From NCBI GenBank assembly GCA_963741205.1, contig CAVUHW010000010.1, positions 32,001 to 96,000 on the forward strand: a stretch of DNA of 64,000 bases, given 5' to 3'. This DNA comes from Nitrospirota bacterium. GTDB taxonomy: Bacteria > Nitrospirota > UBA9217. The notes under the pieces were generated by a model. That model was given only the letters and a program-made list of their open reading frames with translations. It was not told the DNA's origin and did no database searches. Of the stretch, positions 4,908 through 62,269 are shown in pieces. The translations under genes and the position numbers were made by a program. Every line of letters begins with the position of its first letter. Within the stretch, counting starts at the first letter, position 1.

Positions 4908-7545
4908 TTACGTCGGCCGCATTTTCCTCACGACGAATTTCCGGCCTTCCTCGGCGAAGAGCAGGAAGACCACGAAAGGGATGAGCATAAGCCATACATC
5001 GAGCGATACGGGTGCGGTTGAGAATATCCTGTTTCCCAGGGGATGGTAGACGATAACGACCTGCAGGAGGAGTTCGAACGCGATACCGATGAAGATCAAG
5101 CGGTTCGAGAAAAAGTCGCGCGTGAAGACCGACTCGCGGGACGACCTGCAGGCAAAGACGTTGCCGACCTGCATCATAACGATGCCCAGGAACGTCGCGG
5201 TAGAGGCCTGGCGCACGAGAACGTCATCCAAAGGCAAAGACGCGCCCCACGTCCAGCCGCCCTGCCTGAGCACGTAAAAGTACGCGAAGAGTGCGCCGGC
5301 CGTGCTGATGAGCCCGAGAAACACGTAGCTCCTGATGAGGAGCGCCGCGTCGATGAGGCTGCTGTGTTTGGACCGGGGCGGGCGGCTCATGATGTTTGCC
5401 TCCGGCGCCTCGACGCCGAGAGCGAGGGCCGGGATGGTTTCGGTGCCGAGGTCGATAGCCAGGATCTGGGCCACCGTAATCGGAAGAGGAATCCTGATGA
5501 GCGCATACAGGATATAGGGCACGGCCTCCGGGGTCAGGTGGGCGAAGATATAGGTAATGAATTTCTTGATGTTTTCGAAGATGGCCCGCCCTTCTTCGAT
5601 GGCGTTTACGATGGTCGCGAAGTTGTCATCGAGAAGGACCATGTCCGCGGCCTCCTTGGCCACGTCCGTGCCCGTGAGCCCCATGGCGATCCCGATGTCC
5701 GCCCGCTTCAGGGCCGGGGCGTCGTTCACGCCGTCGCCGGTCACCGCGACGCGTTCTCCCTCCTCCTTCAGGACGTTTACGACGCGCAGCTTGTGCTTCG
5801 GCGTCATGCGCGTGAAAAGGACCTCGGGCTTTGCAAGGACTGCCCGCAGTTCCGGGTCGGTCATGTTCACGAACGCCTCTCCCTCGACAATGGTTGGGCT
5901 GCCGGACACAAGCCCGATTTCCCGCGCGATGGCTGCGGCGGTCCTCGATGCGTCGCCGGTGATCATGATGACGCGTATGCCCGCTTTTCTGCACATTTCT
6001 ATCGCCCTCGCCACATCCGGCCGGGGAGGGTCTTCGAGCCCGATAAGGCCGGTGAAGATCATGTCCTGTTCCGCCTCTTCCCTGTCCTGGAGCCGCACGC
6101 TGGGCTCCGCCTCACGGTATGCGAAGCCCAGGACGCGCAGGCCCTGGTCCATAAATGACTGGTACAGGTCCGTTATTTCCCGTCGCAGTTCCTTCGTCGA
6201 GGGGGACGACGGCGCCGCCTTTCACGGAACGCGTGCAGACGGAGAGCACAGTCTCGGGCGCGCCCTTGGTCATGACATAAACGGCGTCCTTGACGGCGTT
6301 CACCGTGCTCATCCGTTTATGTTCGGTGTCAAAGGCAAATTCCCGGATGCGGCGCTGGTCCGCAGTCGCTCCGTGTTCCAGCGCCGCCCGGTAGATGGCC
6401 ACTTCGGTGGGGTCTCCCCTGAGCTCGCCGTTCACGTTCCGCGTATTGTTGCACGTGAGCGCGGCGGTGAAGAGCCACGGGCTGATTGCCGATGAACCGC
6501 TGCCGGGCGCGCCGACCTTCCTGACCGTCATCTCGTTTTTCGTGAGCGTGCCGGTCTTGTCCGTGCAGATCACCGAAACGGAGCCGAGCGTCTCGACAGC
6601 GGTGAGGGTCTTGATGAGCGCGTTCCGCTTTGCCATGCGCTGGCTTCCCATGGCGAGGGAGAGGGTCACGGTCGGGAGCAGGCCCTCGGGGACATTGGCC
6701 ACGATGATGCCCACTGCAAACAGAAAATTTTCCCAGAACGTCCTGCCGCTTGCGTAGCCGATGGCGAAGAAGAGGACGCCGGTGACCGTTGCGATGACGG
6801 CGACGATCCGCGTGATCCTCGCGATCTCCCGCTGGAGCGGGGAGAGGCCCGGCGAGACCGTATCCGTCAGGTGGGCGATCCTCCCGAACTCGGTCCGCAT
6901 GCCCGTTGCAAAGACCACGCCCTTGCCCGATCCGCTCACGGCGGCGGTGCCTGCAAAGGCCACGTTGGGGCTGTGCAGGATATCGGCGTCGGAGGGCGCG
7001 GTGGAACGCGCTACCGGCTCCGATTCTCCGGTGAGCGGCGCATTGTTTACCTTGAGGTCAACCGACTCGATGAGCCGGACATCTGCGGGCACTTTGTCCC
7101 CTTCGCCTACCAGCACAACGTCTCCGGGGACGATCTCGTCGGCGGGGAGTTCGAGCTCGGCGCGGTCCCGCAGGACTCTGACACGGAAGGGGAGGAGCTT
7201 CTTCATGGCCTCAAGGGCTTTTTCAGCGCGGAACTCCTGGATAAAAGTGAACACGGCGTTGAGGAGGATGACCGCGACGATAGCGAGGCCGAGAGTGAAC
7301 ATGCCCTCGCCGGGGTGGAGGTACTCCGAGACGAAGGAAAGCCCCGCCGCGACCCAGAGCAGCACGGCGAGAAAGTGCGTGAACTGGTCGAGGAACCGGA
7401 GAATGAGGGGACGCCCTTTGACGGCCTCGATCCGGTTCGGACCGAACTCCGCAAGTCGGCGCGCAGCCTCCTCTCCGGACAGGCCGGTTTCGGAGGTGAC
7501 GAGCGTCTGGAAGACTGCTTCCGTCGTGAGGCTGCTGATCTTCAT
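4908..7545 (-). CDS. Cation-transporting P-type ATPase (type II); frameshift near 6150
   Basis: LTGES, ANVPEGL, DKTGTLT, KGAPE, MITGD and TGDGVNDAPALK motifs across two ORFs. Confidence 0.93.
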
Positions 7546-14267: not shown

Positions 14268-16142
14268 TTATTCCCACGGAAGCTTGAGGAAGACATCCAC
14301 CACCTCCGGGTCGAAATGAATCCCACTCAAGGACTTGATATAGTCGTAGGTCTTATCCACCGGCCAGGCTGGGCGATAGGGCCGGTCGTAGATCAGTGCG
14401 TCGGCGACGTCAATAACCGTGAAGATGCGGGCATGAAAGGGGATTGCTTGTCCCTTGAGGCCCCGGGGATAGCCTGAACCATCCCATTTTTCGTGGTGGC
14501 AATACGGGATGTCTATGGTCGGACGGAGGAATGGGATTGCAGAAAGGAGGTCGAAGGCATAATCGGGATGCCGCCTCAGGATCTCATTTTCCTCCTGCGA
14601 CAGGGGGCCATTTTTTCTCAGTATCGCGTCGGGTATGCACATCTTGCCGATGTCATGGAGTAGAGCGCCCCTCCTCACATTCACGAGATCGTGATCTGCC
14701 ACGCCCATTGCCCGGGCAAGGACCACCGTTTTGTCCGCGACCCTTTCGGTGTGACCGTTGGTGTCTGCATCTCGCAACTCGAGGGTCCGTCCCCACCCCT
14801 CAAGGGTGGCATCATAGGCGAGGATGATTTCCGCGTTGGACCGCTGCAGGCTGTCGTACATGGCTGCGTTATCTATGGCAATGGCGGCCTGGCCGGAGAT
14901 GAGTTCGAGAAAACTCAGCCATTCGGGGTCCGGATTGAACTTTTTCCTATGGAACGTCTCCAGTACGCCCTTGACCTTGCCTTGGGTGATGAGTGGCATG
15001 GCGATATATGCCTCGAACCCCTCTCCCTTGAGCGAAGGGGTCAATATCTCCGAAACATTCGGAATGATAACGGCGCGTCGTTCGTAGGCGGCCTGGCCTG
15101 CATGCCCTTTTCCCATCCGGACATGCGCGTTTTGCGCTAAGGGGTTCCTGAAGCCTCGTCCAGCCGCATAGCCTAGGTAGAGGGTATTCTGGTCAAGGAG
15201 AAGCACATCAGCTGCATCGACGCCCAGGCGGGTAATCAGTTTTTCGAGCAGCACGTTCAGGGTGACCCTGAGATCGAGGCTCGAACTGACGGCGATCTCA
15301 ATGTCCCTGAGTGCTGTCATGTTTTCGAGCTGCCTCCGCGCCGTCTCCTCGGTGCGCTTGCGCTCCGTGATGTCCCGCAATACGCTGATCGCGTGCCATG
15401 CTCCTTTGAAATGCAGAGCGGACATTGAAAGTTCCACCGGGAATTCGGCCCCGTCCTTTCTTAAGGCTGTCACCTCCATCAGTTTGCCTATGAAGGGGCC
15501 TTCTCCGGTCCTGCTGAAATTGAGAAATCCCTTTTGGTAATGATCACGGTAGGCAGCCGGAGCCAAGAGCAGATGCATCTCCCTGCCCAGGATCTCTCGA
15601 CTTGAGTAACCGAACACACGTTCCGCGGCATTATTCCAGAATGCGACTTTTCCTTCCTGATCTATCATGATAATTGCGTCCTGCGCCGATGCGGCCAGTC
15701 CTTTGAATTTTTCTTCGCTGTCCCGAAGGGCCAGTTCCGCCTTACTGCGCTCCCGCCGCTCCTCGGCGACCTGAAGGGAACGGTTTACGGCCGGCACCAG
15801 CCTGGAGAGACGGCTCTTGAGGACATAATCCGTTGCGCCTTGCGTCAGTGTTTCGATGGCGAAGTCCTCGCCCATCGTACCGGATAAAAATACGAACGGG
15901 ACGTCCGGGCACCTTTGTCGGGCCTCGGTCAGTGCCGACAACCCGTCGTAGGTCGGCAAGGTGTAATCGGAGATGATAATCTCGGGAGAAAAGTCCTCGA
16001 TTTCACGCAGGAACGCTTCCCGTGTCCAAACACGCTTCAGGCTGAACAATATGCCGCCCCTTCTCAGTTCGAGCGCCATAAGTTCTGCGTCTTCTTCACA
16101 GTCTTCCAGGCTGAGTATTTTCAATTGCTTCTGTGCGTCCAT
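14268..16142 (-). CDS. REC-PAS-GAF-HD-GYP c-di-GMP phosphodiesterase
   Basis: Receiver domain LEDCEED...DYVLK; PAS RKDGAEFPVELS; GAF; LHDIGK and HHEKWDGSGYP. Confidence 0.93.
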   Translation of the reverse strand: MDAQKQLKILSLEDCEEDAELMALELRRGGILFSLKRVWTREAFLREIEDFSPEIIISDYTLPTYDGLSALTEARQRCPDVPFVFLSGTMGEDFAIETLTQGATDYVLKSRLSRLVPAVNRSLQVAEERRERSKAELALRDSEEKFKGLAASAQDAIIMIDQEGKVAFWNNAAERVFGYSSREILGREMHLLLAPAAYRDHYQKGFLNFSRTGEGPFIGKLMEVTALRKDGAEFPVELSMSALHFKGAWHAISVLRDITERKRTEETARRQLENMTALRDIEIAVSSSLDLRVTLNVLLEKLITRLGVDAADVLLLDQNTLYLGYAAGRGFRNPLAQNAHVRMGKGHAGQAAYERRAVIIPNVSEILTPSLKGEGFEAYIAMPLITQGKVKGVLETFHRKKFNPDPEWLSFLELISGQAAIAIDNAAMYDSLQRSNAEIILAYDATLEGWGRTLELRDADTNGHTERVADKTVVLARAMGVADHDLVNVRRGALLHDIGKMCIPDAILRKNGPLSQEENEILRRHPDYAFDLLSAIPFLRPTIDIPYCHHEKWDGSGYPRGLKGQAIPFHARIFTVIDVADALIYDRPYRPAWPVDKTYDYIKSLSGIHFDPEVVDVFLKLPWE

Positions 16143-16493
16143 GGATGTTTCACCCTAGTAAGAGCAGCACCCATTGTAAGTTTATCAATATTCACGCACA
16201 ATATCTATTAATTGTCACTGAAACACCCCAGAGAAGCTCTCAAGAGGGCGTTGGAAATGTTTTGTGAAGAGGGGCGAACGTTGAGAAAAGGGAACGGTGA
16301 TCCGGGATTTTTTGTCCAGAGCGAGTCTTAACAGTCTGGCAGGTGATCGTGAAATGAGGTTGTTAGCGGTATGGAAGGATGACAAGGGAGAGACCCGTTC
16401 GGAGGTCCGGCAGGGGGATATCAGCAGTCAAAAAAAGACCCTCCTTGCGTGCCAGAGAGGGTGCTGCGTCTCACCAAAAAAAAATAAATTCAG

Positions 16494-17057
16494 CTAAACC
16501 GTCATGATCTCTTTTTCCTTGTGCACAAGGAAATCATCAATCTTCTTGATATAGCTGTCCGTCGTCTTCTGGATTTCGTCCTGCAGTTTCTTGGTCTCGT
16601 CCTCCGAGACGTGCGCGTCCTTGTCCTTGCTCTTCTTCTTGATCTCGTCGTTCACGTCCCGGCGAATGTTGCGCACGGCGACCCGCGCGTCCTCGGCCAG
16701 TTTCTTGGCGTGCTTCACGATCTGCTGCCTGCGCTCCTCGGTCAGCGAAGGGATGTTCAAGCGGATAATTTTACCGTCGTTCGTCGGCGTGATGCCCACG
16801 TCCGACTTCAAAATCGCCTTTTCGATCTCACCGAGCATCTTCGGCTCCCAGGGCTGGATGGTGATCTGGCGGGGATCGGGTACGGCCATGTTCGCCACCT
16901 GGTTGAGCGGCGTGGGCGTTCCGTAATAGTCCACCACGATGCCGTCGAGCATGCCGAGCGACGCCCTCCCGGTGCGCAGGGTCGCGAGTTCCTTCCGGAG
17001 CGCGTCAAGGGCCTTGCTCATTTTATCTTCTGCTTTCTTCTTCTGCTCGCTAAGCAT
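16494..17057 (-). CDS. frr: Ribosome recycling factor
   Basis: [29 protein letters not shown]. Confidence 0.97.
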
Positions 17058-17779
17058 TGTTCCTCCCGGTTACGAGCGTCCCGATCGTTTCGCCCAACAC
17101 GATCTTTTTGATGTTGCCGGGGACGTTGAGGTTGAACACGATGATGGGAAGGTTGTTGTCCATGCACAGGGAAATGGCCGTGGCGTCCATGACGCGGAGG
17201 TCCTTCTGCAGCACGTCGATGTAGGTGAGGCGGTCGAACTTGGTGGCGGTTTTGTCCTTCACGGGGTCTGCGCTGTACACGCCGTCCACCTTGGTGGCCT
17301 TCATGATGACCTCGGCCCCGATCTCCATGGCACGGAGAGCCGCCGCGGTGTCGGTCGTAAAGTAAGGGTTGCCGGTGCCTGCCGCGAAGATCACGATGCG
17401 TCCTTTTTCCAGATGGCGCACCGCCCGCCTGCGGATGTAGGTCTCGGCGAGTTCGCGCATTTCTATGGCCGACTGCACCCGGGTCACGATGCCCTTGTTT
17501 TCGAGGACGTTCTGGAGTGCGAGCGCGTTCAAGACCGTGGCCAGCATGCCCATGTAGTCGGCGCTTGCGCGCTCCATGCCCCTGGCGGCCCCGGACAGCC
17601 CCCGGAAGATGTTGCCGCCGCCGATGACGATCGCGATCTCCACCCCGAGTCCGGCGACTTCCCTGACCTCGGACGTGATCGTGTCGAGCACGGCATGGTC
17701 GATGCCGTACCCCTGCTCGCCCATGAGGGCCTCTCCGGAGAGCTTGAGGAGAATGCGTTTGTACTTGGGAGTGCGTCAT
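17050..17779 (-). CDS. pyrH: UMP kinase; indel near the start codon
   Basis: [36 protein letters not shown]. Confidence 0.95.
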
Positions 17780-17790
17780 GATAATACCGA

Positions 17791-29478: not shown

Positions 29479-31282
<1,804 letters not shown>

Positions 31283-31484: not shown

Positions 31485-31560
31485 GGGCCCATAGCTCAGC
31501 TGGTAGAGCTACCGGCTCATAACCGGTTGGTCCCAGGTTCGAGTCCTGGTGGGCCCACCA
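31485..31560 (+). tRNA. tRNA with CAT anticodon, most likely tRNA-Ile2 (lysidine-modified)
   Basis: 76 nt cloverleaf GGGCCCA...CTCATAA...GGTTCGAGTCC...TGGGCCCACCA; Ile-type acceptor stem and location after rpoD. Confidence 0.92.
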
Positions 31561-32989: not shown

Positions 32990-33361
32990 TCAGAGCGGGT
33001 GAGATGATCGCTCTCCGGCAACGGGGGGAGGAAAGTCCGAGCTCCGCAGGGCAAGGCGGTCCCGAAACGGGACAGGGGGCGACCCCATGGACAGTGCCAC
33101 AGAAAAGAAGACCGCCCCGATACAGGGGTAAGGGTGAAACGGTGGGGCAAGAGCCCACCAGATTCCCGGGCGACCGGGAGTGCTTGGAAAACCCCGCCTG
33201 GAGCAAGACCACATAGGGAAGCGTCCCCCGCAAGGGGGTAAGGACGGCCCGTCCGAGACTTCCGGGTAGGTCGCATGAGCCTTCGAGCAATCGGGGGCCT
33301 AGATAAATGATCATCACCCCGAGCGATCGGGGGACAGAACTCGGCTTACGGCCCGCTCTGA
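32990..33361 (+). ncRNA. rnpB: RNase P RNA (type A)
   Basis: GAGGAAAGTCC, AGTGCCACAGAAA, GGGTGAAACGG, ACAGAACTCGGCTTA; terminal P1 tcagagcggg/cccgctctga. Confidence 0.97.
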
Positions 33362-33377
33362 TTTTTTTGTTTTCACG

Positions 33378-38636: not shown

Positions 38637-39989
38637 ATGAGACAGACCAAGATCGTTCTTTCTGATAAGGAGATACCGACCAAGTGGTACAATATCATGG
38701 CGGACATGCCGAACCTGCCCAAGCCGCCGCTCCATCCGGGTACGAAGCAGCCCGTCGGGCCGCAGGACCTCATCCCTATCTTTCCCATGGCGCTCATCGA
38801 ACAGGAAATGAGCCCGGCGCGCTGGATAGATATCCCGGAGGAGGTCCTCGACATCTACTCGCTCTGGAGGCCTTCTCCGATGTTCCGGGCCCACCGGCTT
38901 GAAAAGGCCCTCGGCACGCCGGCCAAGATCTACTACAAATACGAAGGCGTGAGCCCGGCCGGCAGCCACAAGCCGAACACGGCCATTCCGCAGGCATATT
39001 ACAATAAAAAGGCGGGGATCAAGCGCATCGCCACCGAGACCGGCGCGGGCCAGTGGGGTTCGTCCATGGCGCTGGCGGGCAAGCTCTTCGGGCTCGACGT
39101 TACGGTCTACATGGTGAAGGTGAGCTACGGACAGAAGCCTTACCGGAGGATCATGATGGAGACCTGGGGCGCGACCGTTCACGCGAGTCCGTCGAAGACG
39201 ACGAACTCGGGCAGGAAGTTCCTCGAACTGGACCCCAACAACCAGGGCAGTCTCGGCATCGCCATCTCCGAGGCCGTGGAGGACGCGGCCACGCACAACG
39301 ACACGAACTACGCCCTGGGATCGGTCCTGAACCATGTGTGCATGCACCAGACCGTGATCGGGCTTGAAGCGAAGAAGCAGATGGAGCTGGTCGGGGATTA
39401 TCCCGACATCGTCATCGGCTGCTGCGGAGGCGGGAGCAACCTGGCGGGCATCAGCTTCCCGTTCATCCACGACAAGATCGGCGGCAAGAAGCTGCGCGTG
39501 ATCGCGGTAGAGCCGGCGTCCTGTCCCACCCTCACGAAGGGCGAGTTCCGGTACGATTTCGGCGATGTTGCCGGTCTCACCCCGCTCATGACCATGTACA
39601 CTCTCGGCCACGACTTCATGCCGCCGGGCATCCATGCGGGAGGGCTGCGCTATCACGGCGACTCGCCGCTCGTTTCGCAGCTCTACCATGACAAGCTCAT
39701 CGAGGCCCGGGCCTACAACCAGAAGCCGGTGTTCGAGGCCGCGCTGCAGTTCGCCAACACCGAAGGCATTATCCCCGCGCCCGAGAGCGCCCACGCGATC
39801 CGCGCGGCCATCGACGAAGCGCTCCTCGCCAAAGAGGAGGGCAAGCAGAAGACCATCCTCTTCAACCTCTCCGGCCACGGGTACCTCGATCTCCAGGCTT
39901 ACGCAGATTATCACGACGGCAAGCTCCAGGACTACGAGTATCCGGCCGAGAAGATCAAAGAAGCGCTGGCAAAGCTGCCGGTGCTGTAA
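38637..39989 (+). CDS. trpB2: TrpB-like PLP enzyme (TrpB2)
   Basis: [37 protein letters not shown]. Confidence 0.93.
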
Positions 39990-40003
39990 TCGCGAAGGTT
40001 TCC

Positions 40004-40036
40004 GGGCTCCCTGTCTTACGGCGGGGGGCCTTTTTT
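40004..40036 (+). terminator. Intrinsic terminator after trpB2
   Basis: ggctccctgtc...ggcggggggcc followed by T6. Confidence 0.6.
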
Positions 40037-40050
40037 AATTTGGAACTCTG

Positions 40051-40234
40051 TGTCGTCCCCGAATGAACCTATGGGGGTATAGTTAGTCATTCAGGCCCCT
40101 CACGGTCATTTCGAGCATGGCGAGAAATCTTGATTTTTGAACTGGGGGTAAACTCCGCAAAGAATCTGTTTTTCCCAACACATGCCAGACCTTTCGCTTC
40201 TCTCAAAGTCTGTCCTCAGCATGTCGAGGTGACA
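40051..40234. repeat. Cluster of degenerate palindromic repeat elements at the core/accessory boundary
   Basis: tgtcgtccccgaatg..., ggtcatttcgagcatggcgagaaatct, ...gaggtgaca. Confidence 0.5.
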
Positions 40235-40937
40235 ATGAATGTCTCCCAGGTGCAGGCTAGATGCAGATAGAAACTGCCATTACTGTTTACTTCCTGCAGC
40301 AAACGACGGCCGACTTTTTTGGAATATATAGCCTTCACTTGCAATTCTGGTATTTCAAGAAGTGTAAACCATCAACATCAACATCCTGAAGCTGTTGAGT
40401 TATCACTCTCTGAAATGCTTCAATTATCAACCCGTAGTCATTGATGCCTACCCAAAAAAAACCAGTCGAAATGCTTGACGCCTCAAATCTCATAACATGA
40501 CTATCACTGAAAAAGATGTAAAAGGGATGATGAAAGATGCATAGTCCAGATGACAGCGAGATATACGGCCTTAAGGGGCTTGGTGATTCCAAGCCCCTTT
40601 TTGCGAGGCGGATCTAAACTATGTCGATTGGAATGTCTATCCCTTCGGGTTCCCCGACCCGAAGCATCGAATTATCGAGTTATTAACCTGCAAGTTGTCG
40701 GTTCAAATCACCCAGTCGTTGTGGTGTTTCCAACTTTTGCAACAGCCATCCGTATCCGACAATATCGACCTATAAGATACTGTTCTTTTATGCTTTATCT
40801 TAAGGTTAAATTCGACTATACTTTTTGTGTAAATGTTGTGCTTCGTATAGCCTGAAGCTGACGTCTCGCAGCGGGTGCCGCAGCAGGCTAAATGTCTCTT
40901 GATGCGCGGCTAATTATAGAAGCGAACTTAACAGACT

Positions 40938-41720
40938 ATGAACTTGAAAACAGTAACTGCCACGAGATATGTAACTCCATTGCGCGAAGGTGGATCGCTT
41001 CCAGCAATAGTCGAAGCCGATGATGATGGAATGTATGTCCTCAAATTCCGCGGCGCAGGTCAGGGACCCAAAGTTCTAATCGCTGAGTTGTTGGGAGGGG
41101 AGATCGCCCGCGCAGCAGGTCTGCCAGTGCCTGAAATCGTCTTCGTTGAGCTCGACGTTGATCTCGCCCGCACCGAACGCGACCCGGAAATACAAAGCCT
41201 AATAAAAGCGAGCGCTGGCCTCAATCTGGGGCTTGACTACCTGCCCGGTGCTGTCACGTTTGACCCGGTTGCAGAGAAGCTTGACGCGGATCTCGCCTCG
41301 TCGGTCGTCTGGTTTGACGCTTACGTGTCAAACGTCGACCGTACTCCACGCAATACGAACATGCTCATGTGGCACCGACGAGTCTGGCTCATCGATCACG
41401 GCTCGGCCCTCATCTTCCATCATAAATGGACCGACTACCTGGAATCCAGCCGGGACCCTTTCCATATGATAAAAGACCACGTTCTACTCCCGTTTGCCAC
41501 TTCGCTCCGAGAAGTGGACTCGAAGATAGTCGGACGGCTCACGCAAGACGTCATTGACAACATAGTTAAACTTATTCCTGATGCTTGGCTGGTTGGAGAC
41601 TCTCCGTTCAACGATATCAACCAACACCGGGACGCTTACCTTGAGTATCTAATGAGCCGGCTAGAGCCGCCGCATGTTTTCCTGGAGGAGGCGATCCATG
41701 CGCGATCACTATACGTATGA
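40938..41720 (+). CDS. HipA-like kinase family protein
   Basis: YVTPLREGGSLP, VLKFRGAGQG, NVDRT, LIDHG. Confidence 0.85.
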   Translation: MNLKTVTATRYVTPLREGGSLPAIVEADDDGMYVLKFRGAGQGPKVLIAELLGGEIARAAGLPVPEIVFVELDVDLARTERDPEIQSLIKASAGLNLGLDYLPGAVTFDPVAEKLDADLASSVVWFDAYVSNVDRTPRNTNMLMWHRRVWLIDHGSALIFHHKWTDYLESSRDPFHMIKDHVLLPFATSLREVDSKIVGRLTQDVIDNIVKLIPDAWLVGDSPFNDINQHRDAYLEYLMSRLEPPHVFLEEAIHARSLYV

Positions 41721-42108
41721 TTATGCTATAATTCGAGTCGTTCCCAAGGTCGAGCGGGAAGAATTCATCAATGTTGGAGTGATAATCTGGTGCCAGTCCA
41801 AAGAATTTCTCGATGCCTGCATTGAACTAGATGAACAGCGGCTTATGGCACTTGATTCAACATTGGATGTCGGAACAATCCGGTCCCATCTGGCGACCAT
41901 CCCCGCTATTTGTGCTGGCGGAGATCAGGGTGGACCGATTGGCCAACTATCTCAGCGGGAGCGTTTTCATTGGCTTGTTGCACCTCGAAGCACCGTCATC
42001 CAGACATCGCCCGTGCACACCGGTTATTGTAAGAACCCATCCACCGTACTCGAGCATCTGCTTAACACGATGGTGCGAACGTCGCGCGCCTCACAAGAGA
42101 ACAAATAA
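41698..42108 (+). CDS. DUF3037 protein
   Basis: YDYAIIRVVPKVEREEFINVGV, ERFHWLVAPRST, QTSPVH. Confidence 0.88.
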   Translation: MRDHYTYDYAIIRVVPKVEREEFINVGVIIWCQSKEFLDACIELDEQRLMALDSTLDVGTIRSHLATIPAICAGGDQGGPIGQLSQRERFHWLVAPRSTVIQTSPVHTGYCKNPSTVLEHLLNTMVRTSRASQENK

Positions 42109-45523: not shown

Positions 45524-46355
45524 TTCCTCCTTATGGTGGTGCTGGATGAACAGCCCTTCTTGCCTATTGTTATTTTAGTATAGCGGATTTTTTAATCTAT
45601 TGCAGCGAGCTCTTGATCACACTTTCCATCACCTTTCCGCTCACTTCTTTGGCACCCATTTCCCGTGCGATTTATCCCGCACTGTACATCGATTCCTCCC
45701 AACTCATTAACCCTGAAAAGCCGGAACCGACAAGATTGGCGATGGTGAAGAAATAAAGCGGGCTAAGGCATGATGCCCTGGAACTCTCAGTCACCGGCAT
45801 CGCCGTCAATTGTCAGCGAAAAGAAAGAAGGGCTCCTAATATAAACAGTATAGGAGTCCTTCAGTTTGTTGTGATGTGATAGGAAAGTTACCACTGGTAT
45901 TTGTTAGAGTTTAAATCTATTGAATCTTGCGACCTTGTAGTATACGCCGCAAGTTCCAACAAATGAAACTCCCGTGATAATCATTCTGTATCTGTTGACG
46001 TTGCGCTTATCCGTAAAACCCACACTTCATGTCGTCGCGCCAGGTCAAGCCTGGGAAAGGTGGTGGACCAGAAGCCGAAACCTTTCGTCGTGATTCTGTA
46101 GGTAATCAATCCTACCTGGTAAAGCCTGGTCAGCAGCCAGAAGCGAGTCTTGCATGCGCCTAGGTGACTATGTGTGTGAAGCGTAGACAGCTACTGCAAA
46201 AGCCGTGTGATTGAGCCCCGAAATAGCCTCGTGGGAGCTTTCGCCCTCGACATAGCGGGAGCAGCATCGATCGTGCAGTATTGACCTTGCACGACCGATC
46301 CTACCGGGGTCAGAGAGCAGGGCATATGCAGAAGAGGATCACCCAGGAACCTGGG

Positions 46356-48291
46356 GAAAGCGCCGGGATAAACCGGCATAGAGTAGGGAATGAAAGAGTC
46401 CTACGTGAAAGGATGAGCTGATCCATCACGGCCCCGAGTCATGCGCGGGCGGTCGCGAGGCTGCACGTGAAGCGTTGACAGGGGAAGCATAGGCCAGCCA
46501 ATGAGCTCCGAAATCACCCCTTCGGGGTGCCGACCACGTCCCAGGAACGGGAAGGCAACATGGATAACGGCGATAAACAGCCAGTCGTAGTCCGGCCCCG
46601 CGGAGTCTGAGACCCTGTGCATGTGCTTACACTCTATGTTCGAGAACCGGGAGAGCTCAGCAGTTCCTGCCGTTAAATCACATGGCGGCAGGACGGCAAG
46701 GGAAGGCCAGTGGCCGTAATCCTTGCATGCACGCTGCTGAGCAGTCTGACATCGGCGTACTACCGAAGAAGGGGCCGAACAAAATGGTGTGCTCCCATGC
46801 CATGGCGGAGGTTCTGGAGGGAAGGCTGATGACCAAGGGGAAATTCTGAAGAGTCGTCTGCGACCTGTACGCGGAGACAGGAGGAAGCATTGAACGGACT
46901 TGACAGGATACGTGAGGCAGCGGTAAGGGACAAGAAACTTCGGTTCACCAATTTGATGCATCATATCACGGATGAAATGCTCCGAGATGCCTACTCTGCG
47001 CTCAAGCGCAACGCGGCATGCCGGAGTAGACGATATGACATGGCATGAGTATGGTGAGCGCCTGGAGAGCCGGATAGCGGATCTCCATGGCCGTGTGCAG
47101 AGTGGCAGGTATCCGGGCGAAGCCCTCGAAACGGGTTTGGATACCGAAACCGGACGGTCGTCAACGGCCGATCGGCATTGCCGTGCTGGAAGATAAGATA
47201 CGTTGAACAGGCGGTGGTATGGGTACTCAATCAGATCTATGAGCAGGACTTCCTCGGTTTCAGCTACGGATTTCGACCTGAACGCAGCCAACATAACGCG
47301 TTGGATGCAATCTGGGTCGGCATCAAGCAACGGAAGGTAAAATGGGTGCTGGATGCCGACATCAAGAGCTTTTTCGACACGATAAATCATGCGTGGCTGA
47401 TGAAGTTCCTAGAGCATCGCATCGCAGACCCTCGGATGCTCCGCCTGATCCGGAAGTGGCTCAGAGCCGGGGTATCAGAGGATGGCAAGTGGTCAAGAAC
47501 AGAAGTGGGCACGCCGCAAGGGTCGGTGATATCGCCTTTGCTCAGCAACATCTACCTGCATTATGTTCTTGACGAGTGGGTACAATCTTGGCGAAAGAAC
47601 GAGGCGCACGGTGAAATGATCATCGTGCGCTACGCGGATGACTTCGTCATGGGTTTTCAGCACCTGCATGAAGCGAAACGATTTCTTGAGGAAATGAAGG
47701 AGCGATTTGCCCAATACGGCCTGGAAATCCATAGTGAAAAGACCCGACTCATCGAGTTCGGACGATTTGCGGAATCAAATCGTACTGAGCGAGGAGAGAA
47801 AAAGCCTGAAACATTTGACTTTCTTGGGTTCACGCACATTTGCAGCCGAACCCTCAAGGGCAATCATTTCACGATTCATCGTAAGACAATCGCCAAGCGT
47901 CTTCGGGCAAAGCTCAAAGAAGTGAGGGAAGAGGTCATACGCAGACGGCATGAGCCAGTACCGGTACTTGGTAAATGGCTTCGTTCAGTCGTGCAAGGTC
48001 ACCTCAACTACTTTGCGGTGCCCGGCAACACAACGGCAATTAAGGCGTTCCGCAGGGAAATCAACAAGGCATGGCTATACGCGTTGAGGCAACGCAGCCA
48101 GAAGTCCAGTTATCTACCGTGGGACCGAATCAAACTCTTAATTGCGACGTGGATACCTACAGCCATAATACTGCACCCGTACCCAAGCCAGAGGCTTCGC
48201 GTGAACTACCCGAGGTAAGAGCCGTGTGAAGTAATACTTCTCGCACGGATCCGTGCGGGGGGCGTCTGGCAACGGACGTCCCTACCGCGAT
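46356..48291 (+). mobile_element. Group II intron B (class E-like) nested in domain I of intron A
   Basis: Removing it restores GGAACCTGGG|AGGTC; DV gagccgtgtgaagtaatacttctcgcacggatc; 3' end cctaccgcgat; EBS1-like CCCAGG at 46540-46545. Confidence 0.88.
46890..48218 (+). CDS. ltrA: Intron B reverse transcriptase/maturase, no endonuclease domain; about 3 frameshifts in the 5' part
   Basis: RBS aggagg + TTG; RFTNLMHHI, IPKPDGRQRPIGI, SYGFRP, DIKSFFD, GTPQG, YADD, FDFLGF. Confidence 0.9.
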
Positions 48292-48559
48292 AGGTCTTGT
48301 TACTCCGTTTCTAAATGCCGGTGGGGATGACGGAACGAATAACTCCAGGCCTCAAGCGTCTGCGCAGAGATGTTCGAGGAGGTGCGTAATGGCACGAAAC
48401 AAAACGATCAGCGCGAGAAACGGTATCGCCAACTGAAGGAAACGAAAGGCGGCGAGATGGGAAGCAAGACGTCGTAGCGCCTTCATAGTACCGATGAGGC
48501 AGGGGAACGAATCCAATCGGACCCTGCGGAGGTAAGGGGGGCGTCATGTTGTAGAACCG

Positions 48560-49093
48560 TTGATGGGAAAGACAGAGGATGCGATGGAATCCGGAAATAC
48601 AGTCTACACGAAACAGCAACGGATAGCAGAACTCGCGAGGATTCACCCTGATGTAAGTTTCACGTCTCTCGCCCACCACATTGATTTAGTGTGGCTCTAT
48701 GAAGCATTCGGTCGAACGCGGAAGGACGGAGCGACGGGCATAGACAACGTGACAGCAGAGGAGTACGAGCAAGAGTTAAACACGAATCTGCGATCACTGT
48801 TGGAACGCGCCAAATCGGGGAAGTACTATGCGCCACCGGTACTACGGGCGCATATCCCGAAAGACCCGGCAAAGAAGGAAACCCGTCCTATCGGTATACC
48901 GACGTTCGAGGATAAGGTGCTTCAGAGGGCCTGGCAAATGGTGCTGGAGCCACTATATGAACAGGAATTTCTGGACTGCTCATACGGGTTCCGGACAGGG
49001 CGTTCCGCCCACGACGCGTTGCAATCGTTGTGGAAGCAGATGATGGATATAGGCGGATGCTGGATCATCGACCTCGATATTCGGAAGTTTTTC
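48560..49093 (+). CDS. ltrA: Intron A reverse transcriptase, 5' segment (interrupted at DIRKFF|D)
   Basis: FTSLAHHI, GIDNVT, IPK..RPIGIPTFEDK, SYGFR, DLDIRKFF. Confidence 0.9.
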
Positions 49094-49749
49094 GTGCGCC
49101 AGGGTAAGCCCGGCGCTTTCAGCGGGTGCAATTCCCGCCCCGGCAAGGGGAATGAGCCGCCTCACCGGGAATCGAGTCTTGGGCTCATGAAGGCAACGAC
49201 ATGAGTTAAGCGTAGACAGAGCGATGTCCAGGCCGTAACGCAAGTGAAGCGATAGAGCCTCGTGATACATCCGGAGGCCGACAGGGTCGAAAACCTGGAA
49301 GGCTACAGTAGGCGACGAAAAAGGGCGATGGTCGTTGGAGACTCCGGCGGGGTCTGAGAGCACGGCATGGGCAGAAACGGAAGCGTCATGGAACCTGGGA
49401 GATCCACCGCCGTCTCGGTCTGGCGTACAGACCGAGTATGTCTACCGAAAGGACCATCCTGAGGGAGAGAAACGCGACGGTGGAAGTCGGACCGCTGATA
49501 GTACTCGGAGTGCGGGAAAGCCGCATACAGGGGGAAGCGGCGGGGCAGGTTGAGTTGCTGGTCCGGGGAAACATTACCTACACTCAGAGGTAGGAGCACA
49601 ATGTCTACACAACCGGATCAGATCGATGGGTATGACGTTCACCGAACGAGTGCAACCTGGGGAGCCCGTTGCGGGAAATTCGCACGGCGGGTTCTGCGAG
49701 GGGGGACAGGCACAAGAGTACAATACTCAAGGCCTGTCCCTACCCCACC
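49094..49749 (+). mobile_element. Group II intron C, ORF-less (about 656 nt) relative of intron D
   Basis: GTGCGCCAGGG start; DI-DIII nearly identical to D; domain IV reduced to RBS plus MSTQPDQI remnant; DV gagcccgttgcgggaaattcgcacggcgggttc; ends ctaccccacc. Confidence 0.9.
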
Positions 49750-51676
49750 GTGCGCCAGGGTAAGCCCGGCGCTTTCAGCGGGTGCAATTCCCGCCCCGGC
49801 AAGGGGAATGAGCCGCCTCACCGGGAATCGAGTCTTGGGCTCATGAAGGCAACGACATGAGTTAAGCGTAGACAGAGCGATGTCCAGGCCGTAACGCAAG
49901 TGAAGCGATAGAGCCTCGTGATACATCCGGAGGCCGACAGGGTCGAAAACCTGGAAGGCTACAGTAGGCGACCGTAACAGGCGATGGTCGTTGGAGACTC
50001 CGGCGGGGTCTGAGAGCACGGCATGGGCAGAAATGGAAGCGTCATGGAACCTGGGAGATCCATCGCCGTCTCGGTCTGGTTGTCACAGACCGAGTATATC
50101 TACCGAAAGGACCATCCTGAGGGAGATAAACGCGACGGTGGAAGTCGGACCCGCTGATAGTACTCGGAGTGCGGGAAAGCCGCATACAGGGGGAAGCAGT
50201 GGGGCAGGTTGAGTTGCTGGTCCAGGGAAACATTCCCTTCACGCAGAGGTAGGAACCGAATGTCCACACAACTGGATCAGATCAAGGGGAAGGCAAAGTC
50301 GGACCCGAAGCTACGCTTCACATCACTGGCGCACCTGCTCACTCCAGCGTTTCTTAGGGAGACATGGAAACAGATGAACCGGCGTGGGGCGAGCGGAATC
50401 GATGGCGAGACGACGAAGGAGTTTGGGCAAGACCTGGACGCACGGGTTCAATCTCTGAGCGAACGCTTGAAGCAAGGGGCCTACAAGGCTCCACCGGTAC
50501 GCCGAGTGGAAATCCCCAAAGGACCTGGCAGGGAAGGGACAAGACCGCTCGGGATTCCGACGGTCGAAGACCGTCTGCTGCAAAGAGCGGTAGCTCGGAT
50601 ATTGGAAGCGGTGTTCGAGGCGGATTTCTTGGACTGCTCATATGGATTTCGGCCGGGGCGCAATCCCCACGATGCCCTGCGGACATTGCGCACGATCATC
50701 GTCACGAAGAAGGTAGGACACTTGTTCGAAGCTGATATCCGGGGATACTTCAACCACATCCAGCATGAATGGCTGCAAAAGATGGTTGCTCATCGAATTG
50801 CGGACCCGGTCATCCTGCGCCTGATTGGCAAATGGCTGAAAGCGGGCTACATGATGGGAGGAGTCGTTACGCGAACCGAGGAAGGATCGCCACAAGGCGG
50901 GCCGATCAGCCCGATCTTGGCTAACATCTACCTGCACTACGTGCTTGATCTCTGGTTTGAAAAGAAGGTCAAGCCGATGTGCCAGGGTGAGGCGTATCTG
51001 ACGAGATTTGCGGATGATTTTGTGGTGAACTTTCAATATGGCAGAGATGCGGAAGGGTTCAGGAACGAGCCTGACGGATCGATTCGAGAAATTCGGGCTG
51101 GAATTGGCGGAAGAAAAGACGCGGCTGCTGCGCTTCGGACGATTCGTACGTGCGGACCTCGCAAAGACCGGCGATAAGCCGGATACGTTTGACTTTCTTG
51201 GCTTCAAGCATGTCTGTGGTATAGACCAAGGTGGGAAGTTTGCCTTGGTGCGGATTCCGTGCGTCAAAAGCTGCCGAAAGTTCTTGGCCAAGACCAAGGA
51301 ATGGCTCAAGGGGCATATACATTGGAAGCGGCGTGACCAGCAAAGTCAGTTGAAGATGATGCTGCACGGCTTCTACCAATACTTTGGACTGCATCACTGC
51401 AAGCCGAAACTCGACATGGTACGCAGCGCAGTACAGCTCCAATGGATTCGGACGCTACGGAGAAAGAGCCAACGTCACCGACTATACTGGTGCTACCTTA
51501 ATAGCCGAGACTGGTTCAAATTACCGTATGCGGTATCAACACGCCACGCGACGGTTTGACTTTCATTCATCCATTGAGTGCAATCTGGGGAGCCCGTTGC
51601 GGGAAAGCCGCACGGCGGGTTCTGCGAGGGGGGACAGGCACAAGAGGACAACACTCAAGGTCTGTCTCTACCCACC
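49750..51676 (+). mobile_element. Group II intron D (class F-like), directly head-to-tail after C within the RT gene of A
   Basis: GTGCGCCAGGG start; RT ORF; DV gagcccgttgcgggaaagccgcacggcgggttc; ends ctacccacc, after which RT A resumes (T-M-V-H). Confidence 0.9.
50260..51559 (+). CDS. ltrA: Intron D reverse transcriptase/maturase, no endonuclease domain; frameshift near 51065
   Basis: RFTSLAHLL, RPLGIPTVEDR, SYGFRPG, DIRGYFN, GSPQGG, FADD, FDFLGF. Confidence 0.9.
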
Positions 51677-52503
51677 ATACGATGGTCCATAAACACATCA
51701 GGGAGATACTCAAGAGGCGGGTGAGTGACGGAGTAATAACGAGACTCATAGATAAGTGGTTGAAGGCCGGTGTATGGGAGGCAGGAAACATCAGTTACCC
51801 GGAAAAGGGTACTCCTCAAGGCGGCGTGATATCCCCCATGCTGAGTAATATTTATCTTCATGAGGTACTGGACCTGTGGTTTGAGAAGGAAGTAAAACCA
51901 CGCCTCCGCGGCAAAGCGTTTCTGATTCGGTATGCCGATGATGCTGTGTTGGGATTTGCAACCGAAGACGATGCCCGGAGAGTAATGGAAGTGCTTCCGA
52001 AGCGGTTTGCCCGATATGGCTTGACGATCCACCCGGAGAAGACCCGTGTGGTGAGGTTCGTAAAGCCGGAAGACATCAACTCGGGGGGCCACAGCCAGGA
52101 CAAGGATAACACGTTCAACTTTCTAGGATTCACTCACTACTGGGCAAAATCCCGTAAAGGTACAGCGGTGATCAAGCGAAGTACCGAGAAGAGCCGGTTC
52201 ATGCGAGCGCTTATGAAGATTAAGGAGTGGTGCAGAACCAATCGGCACAACCCACTGAAGGAGCAGCATAAGACGCTGAACCAGAAACTTCGAGGCCACT
52301 ACGCCTATTACGGGATCAGAGGCAACAGCCAGGCATTGGGGCACTTCTACCACAAGGTGAGACGGCTCTGGCGCAAATGGCTACAGCGAAGGTCGTGCGA
52401 TGGTAGTATCCCGTGGGATAACTTCGCACTACTTGAAAAGGTCTATCCACTTGCGCCAGCGAGAATCGTTCACTCCGCATACTTACGCAAAGCTACAGCA
52501 TGA
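51677..52503 (+). CDS. ltrA: Intron A reverse transcriptase, 3' segment
   Basis: TMVHKH, KWLKAG, GTPQGGVISP, YADD, FNFLGF, maturase X motif LRGHYAYY. Confidence 0.9.
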
Positions 52504-53520
52504 AGAACCGAATGCGTTAATCGCGCACGTTCGGGTCTGTGGGGGGCTGGGGCAGGTGACTGCCCTGGCCTACCTGGCTAACATTCAGTGCACTGATCAT
52601 CCTGAAACGAACGTTCCTAGCCTCTCGTAAAAACGTGAACTTCCTGTCGTAACTGGTACCCTTCATCCTCATCATCTCACAAGAAGGATCTCTTCCTCCC
52701 GATGATATTCTGCATTTCAAGATCCTCAACTTCAGCGTACCCCTAAATGTTGTCAGGAAAAAAGAAGCTAATAATCAGGGATTCCATGATTGACCAAATA
52801 CAATATTTCCGTCATATTTAATAAAAACACAATAACAGCCAATACAGTATCACAGTAGAACTTATGATGTCTTACATGAAAGTTGCGGAACGGTGCAATC
52901 GCACCCTGGCGTTCATGCTGTTAATCGCGACCCGCACGCTCAGTTTGACCATGTCGCCTGCGTTAGTCGACAGCGACAAGCGCATCGTGAGAGTCATGAC
53001 CCAGAACATGGATGCGGGAACAGATCTGCTGTTCTTTTTTGCCTCTCCTTAGAACCTCAGTTGCGCAAAGGAGTGTACGTAAAATTAAGTCGAAACAAAA
53101 AAAATCTGCATTCCATCAGCTTCCCGTCAGGCCTCAGTAGTATAAGCATGTCATACGCACCAAGCGATGGAAAACACGAATTGTATTGGTGATTGCATAC
53201 CGAGGAAAGAAGGGAGGTGGCGAAGAGATCGATAAGAACAGAGGCAACACGCAAGAGGCAGCAAGGATTTTCGGGAGAATGGTCTTTCGGTCATCGATTG
53301 AAGAAAAATGTGGAATTGATATGGATGTTACATTTTTATTGAAGGAGGGCATGTAACATGAAAGCAACATTCGGCAAGAGATGGGCATTTGTGGTTTTTT
53401 GATGGTTTTTGCGTTACTGGCACCATGCTGGACGTCGGCGGAAACGAAATGCCAGGGGCAAACCAGCATTGGGAAATTCGATCGGCATCAGATCAGCGGT
53501 TTGCAGCAGGGGTATGGATT

Positions 53521-59041: not shown

Positions 59042-59280
59042 GAATTTTATTTAGAGTTCAAGGGATTCATACTATTCGTCGAAACTCGCATGATTGTACA
59101 TGCTCACGACAGGATCAGGATTTGCTTGATGTGAAGAATATCGCTTGAATCATGCGGTGCTAGGTCCTTCCTGTACTTCGCGTGAGTTTACTTTCTGGAA
59201 ATTACAGGCTTTTCTAAGAATTGTTGCAGAGGTTAGGATCATATGCCGGGACAAATAAGACCGGCCGAGGACAGCATTTG

Positions 59281-62269
59281 ATGAAGCTATCTTTCTCACC
59301 GGCGATCATAAAAAAGGTCTTCAAGATACTCGCTCTCTTTCTGGCGGTCATCGCGGTTACGGGATTTCTCATTCTTCCCGCTGTGCTCAGACCCGTTCTT
59401 GAGAAGAAAATATCCGAGGCAATCCATCGCCCGGTCGCTATCCGTGCGGTATACATCAATCCTTTCACGCTGGCCTTCGCGCTACGGGGGGTAACGATCA
59501 GCCAGCGGGACTCCTCCGAGGTCATGCTGTCCTTCGACGAGTTCTACGTGAACGTGCAGTCTTTGTCCGTGGTCAAAGGCGGGCTTATCGTCAGCAGCAT
59601 ACGCCTGGTCAAACCGTACGTGAACGTTACGAGAAACAGGGACCTCTCCTACAATTTTAGCGACCTGCTGACGACCGGAACGACGCCGACCAAAGGGGAA
59701 AAACCGAAAGAGCCCCTCAAATTCTCGCTCAATAATATTGAAGTGGTAAACGGCAGCGCCGACTTTTTCGATGCCCCCAGGAACACCCGCCATACCGTGC
59801 GGGATGTGAATATTGCGGTGCCGTTCGTTTCAGATCTTCCCTATGACCTCTCATCCTATGTCCAGCCCGCCTTCGAGGCAACGGTCAACGGTACCGCTAT
59901 CGCGCTTAAGGGGAAGACACTGCCGTTCAACGAATCGCTCGAGACAACGCTCGACATCAACTGGAAGGGGCTGGATATCCCGCACTACCTGACGTACAGC
60001 CCGGTGCCGCTCAAAATCCAGCTCCTGTCAGGTACACTCGATGTGCAGGCGACGATCTCGTTCCGAAAGTTTAAGGACCGGCCGCCCACGGTCTCTGTCA
60101 AAGGGACCCTTGGTCTCAACAACATTCGGCTGGCAGCCACGGGGACGAAGCGGTTCCTGGAATTCCCGTCGTTCTCAATCTCCTTCCTCCCCTCCGATCT
60201 GATGAAGAAGGAAGTTCATCTATCCGAAGTGAGCCTGCGCGCGCCGAAACTGTATGTGGAGCGCGACCGCGGCGGCGAACTGGTCATCATGAAGGCGATC
60301 CTGGAGCAGCTGGGAGTGAGCCAGGACAAGCAGGAACCTGCTCCCGAGAAAGCGGGCCCCATGCCGATCATTGATATCGACGCGTTCTCGATCCAGGACG
60401 GCATGTTGCAGTTCCTTGACTGGCAGCCCGTTCCTGCTGCGGAGGACGGGGAAGGTGCCACTCAAAAGCCGGCTAAAGTGCTGATCGAAGCCATCGAACT
60501 AAAAGCCAGCTCTCTTTCGACGCGCAAAGACAGCAAGGGAAAACTGGAGCTGTCGGTTCATGTCAACAGGAAGGGCACGGTGCGGACATCGGGTTCGCTC
60601 GGACTGGTTCCTCTCGATCTAGAAACGGCGGTGAACATCAACGGGATCGAACTCGCGCCGTTCCAGCCCTATATGGCGCAAAAAGCGGATGCGTTTGTGG
60701 GCCGATGGCAGGCTTTCCACGGACGGTATCGCACGCGTCTGGGCCGGGGAGGCCGGAGTCCTTTCCGTGACATACCGCGGCAGCGCATCGATCAGCCGCC
60801 TTGCCCTGCGCGACAGCAGCAACAACGACCTTCTGACCTGGAAGCTGTTGCAGTTCTCCGGGGTCGAGATGGGGTCCAACCCGCTCTCCCTGAAGATAAA
60901 GACGGTCGCACTCAGCGACTTCGCTGCGGGCATCGTTGTCGAAGAGGACGGCACGCTGAACTTTCAAAGGATTGCGAAGGCAGAGCCGGCTGAGGGTGAA
61001 ACAGCGCAGGAAGAAACAAAACAGGGACCTTCTCCTTCAGCCGAGGTGAAGAAGGCTCCTGCACAACAGGGAACCCCTCCGGACATTGCCATCGGGCAGG
61101 TGACACTTACGAACGGAAGCGTCAACTTCACGGACAGGCACATAAAACCGATGTACACGGCAAACCTTGTTGAGATCGACGGCAAGGTGTCCGGCCTGTC
61201 CTCGAGAAAGGACATGATGGCGGACGTGAACCTGCGCTGTTCCCTGGACCGGTACGCGCCGCTTGCGATAACGGGAAAGATCCATCCCTTCGGGAACGAT
61301 CTGTCTGCCGACATAAGGGCGGATTGCAAGGACATCGAGCTAAGCCTGCTAACGCCTTATTCGGGGACGTACATCGGCCACGCCATCGAGAAGGGCAAGC
61401 TTTCCTTCAGCCTGGAATATCACATCGTGAATAAGAAGCTTGAGGCAAAGAATGACATCTTTATCGATCAGCTGACGCTGGGAGAAAAGATCGACAGTCC
61501 GAAGGCGACCAATTTGCCGGTCGGCCTTGCCATATCGCTGCTCAAGGACAGGAAGGGCGAGATCAGGCTCGACATCCCGGTGACCGGAGAGATCGACAAT
61601 CCCGAGTTCCGCGTCTGGAAGGTGGTCCTGCAGGTGCTGAAAAACCTGCTCGTGAAGGTCGCTACCTCGCCGTTCGCTCTACTCGCCAGCATGATGGGAG
61701 GGGAAGAGCTGGGATATGTGGAGTTCGACTATGGCGCGGTCGAGGTCACAGAACAGAACCTGAAAAAACTGGACAGTTTGGTTGATGCCCTCTATAACAG
61801 ACCGTCGTTGAAACTGGAGATAGCGGGATATGTTGATCCGACTAACGACCGCGAGGGGCTGAGAGCCGGGCGCAAGAAGAACATGATCCTTGCCGAGAAA
61901 ATGAAGGATCTGTCCCGAAGGAACGAGCAACCGGTCTCGCCGGAATCGGTCCAGATCAGCGCCGCTGAATACCCGATCTATCTGAAGCAGGCGTACAAAA
62001 GCGGAAAATTCTCCAAGCCGAGGAACATGCTCGGCATTGCTAAAGACATTCCCGATGCGGAGATGGAAAAACTGCTCCTGGGGAGCATTCAGATAAATGA
62101 CGACGATCTGCGGCAACTTGCTTTAGAGAGGGCGCGTACGATCAGGGACGTGATCCTGAAGTCTCAAAAGATCGAGCCTGAACGCATATTCCTTATTGAG
62201 CCAAAGTCATTTCTGCCGGAACAAAAGGATAAGCTCAAGAACAGCCGAGTAGACTTCTCGCTTAAATGA
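59281..62269 (+). CDS. DUF748 (AsmA-like) repeat protein with an OmpA-like C-terminal region; frameshift near 60700
   Basis: INPFTL, NFSDLL, LTPYSGTYIG, LAISLLKDRKGEIRLDIPVTG, LYNRPSLKLEIAG, SRVDFSLK. Confidence 0.85.

Follow-up and report, generated by a model that had tools for sequence, protein, structure and literature searches.

The window analysed here is a stretch of 64,000 nucleotides (nt) from the genome of a Nitrospirota bacterium (NCBI GenBank assembly GCA_963741205.1, contig CAVUHW010000010.1, positions 32,001 to 96,000, forward strand), a draft of 4.27 Mb in 50 contigs with a completeness of 84.5% and 4.9% contamination. Nested group II introns occupy 46034-52578 on its plus strand: an outer intron (H) is interrupted twice, by intron B in its 5′ part and by two directly adjoining introns, C and D, within its reverse transcriptase (RT) gene. 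This report concerns the head-to-tail pair of C, which lacks an RT open reading frame (ORF), and D, which is of full length, and the probable origin of the pair by a second retrohoming into an already occupied site. The features were assigned from matches to Rfam and Pfam models, from the ORFs and from the alignment of C with D, as follows (EBS1, exon-binding site 1).

46034..46355, + strand: outer intron H, 5′ part (domain I); RF02005 at 46106-46319, 141.4 bits; start approximate
46356..48291, + strand: intron B, nested in H upstream of the RT gene of H; RF02005 at 46395-46615, 171.1 bits
48292..49093, + strand: H continued, with the N-terminal half of its RT (about 48584-49093); RVT_1 profile positions 1-79; ORF 48560-49204
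49094..49749, + strand: intron C, ORF-less (internally deleted) group II intron, 656 nt; RF02005, RF00029 and identity to D
49288..49293, + strand: EBS1 of C (CGAAAA), at the tip of a hairpin; placed by the Rfam alignment
49601..49624, + strand: remnant of the RT start in domain IV of C (ATG and 7 codons, MSTQPDQI); the alignment with D stops here
49662..49749, + strand: domains V and VI of C; RF00029; fold energy -51.7 kcal/mol, z -5.6
49740..49756, + strand: head-to-tail junction at 49749/49750, 3′ end of C and then 5′ end of D; CTACCCCACC followed by GTGCGCC, an exact 3′-to-5′ join
49750..51676, + strand: intron D, full length, 1927 nt; RF02005 at 49785-50018 and RF00029 at 51588-51676
49944-49949, 50260-51559 and from 51590, + strand: EBS1, RT gene and domain V of D, respectively
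51060..51070, + strand: +1 frameshift in the RT of D, with one surplus base near 51066/51067; ORFs 50209-51177 and 51038-51559 in different frames
51677..52578, + strand: H continued after D; RVT_1 positions 86-204 and GIIM; C-terminal half of the RT to 52503, then domains V-VI

The 5′ end of H (near 46034) was read from the sequence by its likeness to the 5′ end of D, and its 3′ end was placed near 52578, where domains V-VI gave an RF00029-like match at 52503-52578 (33.2 bits, under the cut-off). The upstream half of the RT of H ends in ...DLDIRKFF, which is the 5′ exon of C, and the 3′ exon of D begins AT ACG ATG, that is, the remainder of an Asp codon followed by TMVHKHI. In the Pfam search the RVT_1 match of H was split between profile positions 79 and 86, stopping at 49093 and resuming, together with the maturase domain, at 51679; the insertion point of C and D is the Asp codon of the FFD motif of H.

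Relatives of C and D were collected from metagenome contigs by exact match to the first 20 bases of the two introns, giving 46 loci (designated L with a number) which all begin GTGCGCC by selection. The locus was also compared with Logan contigs, not raw reads, of four soil-metagenome runs (X1-X4). A structural consensus of 146 base pairs was obtained with RNAalifold from 35 family members.

Intron C matched RF02005 over the full model (1-225) at 49129-49362 (124.5 bits, cut-off 49), covering domains I-IV, and RF00029 at 49660-49748 (45.4 bits, cut-off 40), covering domains V-VI. The start of domain IV is kept, and just the first eight codons of the RT gene are in common with D. By BLAST, nucleotides 1-537 of C were aligned with 1-540 of D (95.2% identity, 23 mismatches, 3 gap openings) and nucleotides 555-652 with 1827-1924 (92.9%, 7 mismatches), and about 1.29 kb of D, comprising the RT ORF, had no counterpart in C. 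The original prediction, made from the letters of the window, had described C as a 656-nt ORF-less intron keeping domains I-III, the start of domain IV and domains V and VI, and this was borne out by Rfam and by the alignment with D; so were its reading of MSTQPDQI in C for MSTQLDQI in D (ATGs at 49601 and 50260) and its view that C is not an exact assembly duplicate, given 30 substitutions relative to D. The comparison supports the assignment of C as an internal-deletion derivative of the D lineage, to which the label non-autonomous may fairly be given.

C and D do not differ in their first 222 nt, and every difference lies downstream of these. Beyond nt 222, the identity is 94.2% between C and D, 94.2% between D and L030, and 93.9% between D and L052, the latter two being in other hosts. 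By this comparison C appears to be no fresh copy of D, which supports the origin argued below. Gene conversion over the first 222 nt was considered and was not strongly supported, this segment being slow-evolving throughout the family (L052 is 99.1% identical there versus 92.8-93.9% beyond). In at least one helix the two introns differ by a compensated pair (G-C versus A-U at 49565/49614), and two of the seven differences in the 3′ part turn a G-U into a G-C pair in domain VI. C breaks 4 of the 146 consensus pairs, three of them at near-invariant positions, whereas D breaks one and 19 members break none.

Intron D scored 124.2 bits with RF02005 and 40.0 bits with RF00029. Its RT matched RVT_1 (E 2.2e-24) and, in another frame, weakly GIIM (19.5 bits, under the cut-off of 23), and gave no endonuclease domain. 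The longest ORF encodes 305 amino acids, versus intact ORFs of 432-456 amino acids in all 21 full-length relatives, and the surplus base at 51066/51067 is absent from X1 and X4 contigs and from L030; D as assembled has no intact RT-maturase ORF. The pair had been proposed to consist of a satellite and its autonomous helper. C does keep the start of domain IV and lack the ORF, but whether it was ever a satellite moved in trans is an even question, and the autonomy of D fell with the frameshift.

At the C/D junction the 3′ end of the upstream intron is joined straight to the first G (G1) of the downstream intron. The absence of a spacer, as originally claimed, holds with intron ends that were set independently, since all 24 relatives with a recognisable 3′ end terminate in CTACC(C/A)ACC. 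The 3′ end of C, CTACCCCACC, has one additional C that is present in 0 of these 24 relatives, and in CUACCCC the A stands 8 nt before the end, one farther than in D and in all 24. An alternative partition with a one-base spacer (intron ending ...CCCAC, and a cytosine as the spacer and +1 base of the exon, as the frame of H seemed to require) was rejected. Because empty H-like sites read TTTTTC-G-ATACG and the exons of the family end in G in 35 of 35 cases, the intron end was taken as CCCACC and the anomaly as a G that is absent between exon and C. This missing G, the additional C, the 222-nt identity and the frameshift in D had all escaped the original prediction.

The target site was defined from the relatives. 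In 39 of the 46 loci (35 distinct exons) the 5′ flank encodes the RT motif D-x-D-x-x-x-(F/Y)-F and then has a single G, and L036, first set aside as ectopic, also sits in an RT and is the 40th such locus. All 35 distinct exons have G at -1 and T at -4. The +1 base after the intron is A in 23 of the 24 loci with a 3′ end and G in one (L052), and is never a pyrimidine; this A is also forced by the Asp codon. In the host 3′ exons that were scanned, RVT_1 was found in 10 of 10 (beginning near profile position 81), a group II maturase domain in 8 of 10 and an HNH domain in one, by which the hosts are diverse group II intron RTs. By these flanks the family inserts inside the Asp codon (G/AY) of the host FFD motif, after the FF of D-x-D-x-x-x-F-F-D, and is a specialist parasite whose homing targets are RT genes within other group II introns. 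C and D stand inside another group II intron at this repeatedly used site, as members of a twintron. In the RT of the family itself, YFN (AAC) is found at the place of the target motif (window 50740-50760) in 25 of 25 members checked; with AAC at this position the family's own RT gene is without the -1 G of the target, and the substitution may confer self-immunity.

The sequence GUCGAAAA was placed in a hairpin loop by the Rfam alignment, and the CGAAAA within it is complementary to exon TTTTCG. This EBS1 is identical in C and D. Some covariation of loop and exon was seen among the relatives, CAAAAA being found with TTTTTG (L018 and L029) and CGAAUA with TATTCG (L008), and mismatches are tolerated at other loci. 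For EBS2 and its intron-binding site (IBS2), no convincing partner was found, and exon positions -8 to -13 are highly variable. C itself carries the GTGCG 5′ end and EBS1, but the exon before it, TTTTTC, lacks the final G of IBS1.

Taken together, the exact junction, the family target site, the shared EBS1, the empty H-like sites, the divergence of C from D and a published precedent lead us to conclude that the C/D tandem probably arose by a second retrohoming into an occupied site. In the precedent, a second copy of the E. coli IIB1 intron EcKTE56.groEL integrates precisely between the exon and the first copy (Mob DNA 2025, PMC12584367), and the tandem is attributed to wobble between EBS3(U) and IBS3(G), the latter being G1 of the copy already in place. 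Of the integrants of an ORF-deleted intron 22.4% were tandem, versus 4.2% with the wild type, and a tandem was seen in about 3% of the intron-containing reads of a natural strain.

From the anatomy, target site, EBS1-IBS1 match and defects that were observed, we infer the following order of events, wobble and RNA behaviour. D or an ancestor of D would first have occupied the site in H, and a second intron RNA of the same sublineage would then have reverse-spliced into that site. The unchanged 5′ exon could still have paired with EBS1, and the first G of the resident intron would have stood in place of the usual +1 A; U is predicted at EBS3 from this normal A, and such a U would tolerate G by wobble. 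The newcomer, C, would have landed exactly between exon and D, giving the order exon, C, D, exon. If the tandem was made by retrohoming, its upstream unit, C, is the later arrival; the 3′ end of C (CCCCACC) offers no pairing for EBS1, so that homing of D behind C is excluded. The origin that was put forward at the outset, re-use of one and the same 5′ exon site, is the best supported one, given the shared EBS1, the absence of pairing at the 3′ end of C and the precedent. We regard it as about equally probable that C came already ORF-less, with RT supplied in trans, and that it lost the ORF of about 1.29 kb later; the deletion in C being unique, a mobile ORF-less lineage is not shown, and loss in place is about as likely as mobilisation in trans. 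On the RNA, the 5′ splice site of D would be without IBS1 until C had been removed, so splicing would have to be sequential (C, then D) or to use the 5′ site of C with the 3′ site of D. With the frameshift in the RT of D, the G absent before C and the broken helices in C, the locus looks partly decayed.

Origin by a second retrohoming has several observations against it. The exon/C junction reads TTTTTC/GTGCGCC, not TTTTTCG/GTGCGCC, and is one G short of the canonical form by comparison with both the 35 of 35 family exons and an X1 contig; the loss could lie either in the exon or in the intron. The RT of D is the only cognate RT in the genome, yet it is frameshifted, and no cognate RT for C was found among the introns on contigs C12 and C14 of the draft or in the RT fragment on contig C45. 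C and D are the only copies of their intron family in the draft genome; a count of C-like copies elsewhere in it, as originally suggested, gave zero, and the deletion of C was spanned by 0 of the 46 related loci. Among the relatives, none of the 46 junctions examined at the 5′ end and none of the 24 at the 3′ end was a tandem, which gives no support to the idea that such insertions build intron arrays. A degenerate pattern of the junction occurred once in the source genome and in none of 400 further genomes from the phylum, and a scan of a collection of genome contigs with the junction 20-mer gave two exact matches, both in unrelated DNA and neither a true junction. EBS3 was not located, and the wobble is thus only inferred. 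The draft state of the genome (50 contigs, incomplete and partly contaminated, as given above) counts against the reading as well.

The trees and the metagenomes also bear on this origin. In a first tree, built without the divergent loci L012, L016, L017, L028, L035 and L046 and without loci having fewer than 545 nt past the start, a single clade (92/91) held C, D, L030 and L052, with no resolved order inside it. In a 23-row tree of the 5′ and 3′ parts, C was sister to (D,(L030,L052)) with support of 60/81, and a forced clade of C and D cost 2.24 log-likelihood units and was not rejected (p-AU 0.39); the tree does not separate an independent arrival of C from a local origin. As to the metagenomes, and in favour of a second retrohoming, an X3 contig joins 49094 to 51677 in an H-like RT about 4% diverged and without C and D, reading ...TTTTTC-G-ATACG, and loose ends in X4 agree with this empty site. 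An X1 contig over 49070-49122 has an additional G behind 49093, that is, the canonical exon-G/GTGCGCC on the exon of H, and X1 has, in a different host RT, a copy nearly identical to D (over 1658 nt, 1 letter differs and there is 1 gap). No contig bridging 49749/49750 was found among the X1-X4 contigs listed; among these contigs the interior of C (49185-49652) was not covered in X1 and X4, was next to uncovered in X3, and was covered partially and imperfectly in X2. The contigs neither support nor refute the tandem and give no independent confirmation of the C/D junction.

These gaps in contig coverage, together with the state of the draft, also count in favour of an assembly artefact, in which C and D come from different molecules or strains (H with C, and H with D) and were joined through their shared 222-nt repeat. 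Contigs of the family can be chimeric across identical introns, as L038, L041 and L042 may be, the unique interior of C is missing from X1, and two single-base length differences were found relative to near-identical X1 contigs in this region. On the other hand, a graph assembler needs reads that hold the junction word, so some tandem with C upstream would have to exist, even if the partner or the host of C could then be mis-paired. The 30 substitutions between C and D argue against a duplicated read path, and the remaining ORFs of the window are of ordinary length, as expected of an assembly that is not riddled with errors; by this measure, wholesale indel error is unlikely, and an error may still lie inside the repeat region. 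We rate an artefact of this kind as unlikely.

Somewhat less probable in our judgement is a tandem duplication of a full-length resident at the DNA level, through slippage or an unequal exchange, after which the copies diverged and the upstream one suffered an internal deletion, with no second retrohoming. It would accord with C and D being each other's only relatives in the genome, with the identity of their first 222 nt, with the C+D clade that the tree test did not reject and with the uniqueness of the C deletion. But a duplication gives no reason for both end points to fall at the ends of the intron RNA, and the exon ends and intron ends have no common repeat to drive an unequal exchange; the 222-nt identity, moreover, is weak evidence, because this part evolves slowly throughout the family. 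Entry of both units in one step, from complementary DNA (cDNA) copied off an intron RNA in head-to-tail form (a circle or concatemer, for example), would fit a junction that joins a complete 3′ end to a complete 5′ end, and group II intron circles with 3′-to-5′ junctions are known (PMC4478347, PMC8266578), but we hold it to be very improbable, as no precedent for integration of such cDNA was found in the literature searched, a divergence of 5-7% and the loss of the ORF would be required afterwards, and it leaves unexplained why the imperfection is at the upstream exon junction when the internal junction has none.

Origin by a second retrohoming, preferred over these, was compared with known systems. 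The tandem of EcKTE56.groEL is like that of C and D in having two copies head-to-tail at one homing site, with the second before the first G of the resident. Its copies are identical, recent and located at the end of a housekeeping gene, whereas C and D are 5-7% diverged over most of their length, lie inside the RT gene of another intron and have an exon junction one base short; here, in addition, the lack of an ORF in one copy is natural, and the RT of the other is frameshifted. A U at EBS3 is documented for EcKTE56.groEL and is a prediction for C and D. In M. acetivorans, ORF-less and RT-encoding introns have homed repeatedly into other introns (PMC4424553, PMC2882425); as with C and D, both kinds occur together, between exons that encode no gene of the cell, which gives a 'perpetual homing site' (PMC4424553). 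According to that review, the M. acetivorans introns are nested up to five deep, whereas C and D stand side by side at a single site. Thermosynechococcus elongatus has TeI4 twintrons and TeI3 introns without an ORF, the latter being spliced and mobilised in trans by the intron-encoded protein of related introns (Mohr et al. 2010, PMC2882425). The ORF-less introns there keep a short domain IV, as C does, and use a conserved site in the ORF region of another intron; the inner intron lies inside the outer one whereas C lies beside its relative, and mobilisation in trans was measured for T. elongatus only. Side-by-side group I introns of fungal mitochondria (PMC7902536) also comprise two related neighbours, for which stepwise removal beginning with the upstream one is proposed, and differ in being group I, with a short pseudo-exon between the modules where the group II introns C and D have no spacer. 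C and D are a natural case of a known kind of tandem, and the known mechanism is unchanged by them.

Other group II introns were noted in the genome and among the relatives. The ends of intron B were set against an ORF-less copy of the B type on contig C9 of the draft (about 6648-7308, minus strand), a lone copy of about 660 nt that is 84% identical over the 5′ 560 nt; B and this copy have an unusual 5′ start, GAAAGCGCC, and 3′ end, CCCTACCGCGAT, in common and form a second pair of ORF-less and full-length introns in the same genome. The 3′ part of B gave an RF00029-like match at 48217-48291 (35.3 bits, under the cut-off), and its RT frame has fallen into three or more ORF pieces (46890-47048, 46972-47196 and 47178-48218). 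Two more group II introns, of different types and with RTs sharing 35-40% identity with that of D, were found on C12 (about 14313-16188, minus strand) and C14 (about 39883-41814, minus strand), and the RT fragment on C45 lies at about 29881-30322. A DNA search with C in a family-level set of 64 genomes gave just three weak short matches outside the source genome. Among the metagenome loci, L033 is an ORF-less relative in another host, on a contig ending about 625 nt after the intron start, and L016 and L028 hold a 314-nt relic (about 130 nt of the 5′ end, the end of the ORF and domains V-VI) at the FF/D site of a host RT, found in two different metagenomes with identical flanks. Together with the B-type copy on C9, these show that ORF-less relatives arise repeatedly.

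L041 (114-3903, oriented) is a D-like intron with a 1860-nt insert at about position 1275 of D, in the YADD region of the RT, and the insert is probably an intron of another family homing into a different RT motif. L038, L041 and L042 have identical introns and the same 18-base 3′ exon with different 5′ exons, and either the host RTs are recombinant or the contigs are chimeric across the identical introns, so caution is due with such loci. Elsewhere in the window, two pairs of same-strand ORFs overlap in different frames (16521-17111 with 16939-17781, and 59221-60993 with 60689-62269); these could be frameshifted genes or assembly indels, which bears on the trust to be placed in single-base differences of the assembly. 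A bacterial RNase P RNA of class A (32992-33363, 274.7 bits) and a tRNA gene (31485-31557) are ordinary.

As a tentative thought, and one we hold to be doubtful, ORF-less satellites may exploit the wobble at G1 to stack upstream of their helper, forming an obligate sequential-splicing unit, since the helper would lack pairing with the 5′ exon as long as the satellite is in place, and possibly a mobile composite (with the 5′ site of C and the 3′ site of D), as a stable lifestyle and not an accident. If true, the compensated changes in helices that distinguish C from D would indicate that selection maintained both as functional RNAs during part of the history they share.

That group II introns can integrate in tandem at a single site was demonstrated only lately and for the most part with engineered donors. 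A pair that is natural and diverged would show that such tandems can be fixed and persist, that a non-autonomous copy can occupy the site of its helper, and that occupied homing sites are not immune. A family found throughout soils that lives on the RT genes of other introns, with its own RT gene lacking the target codon, is a clear case of mobile elements parasitising mobile elements.

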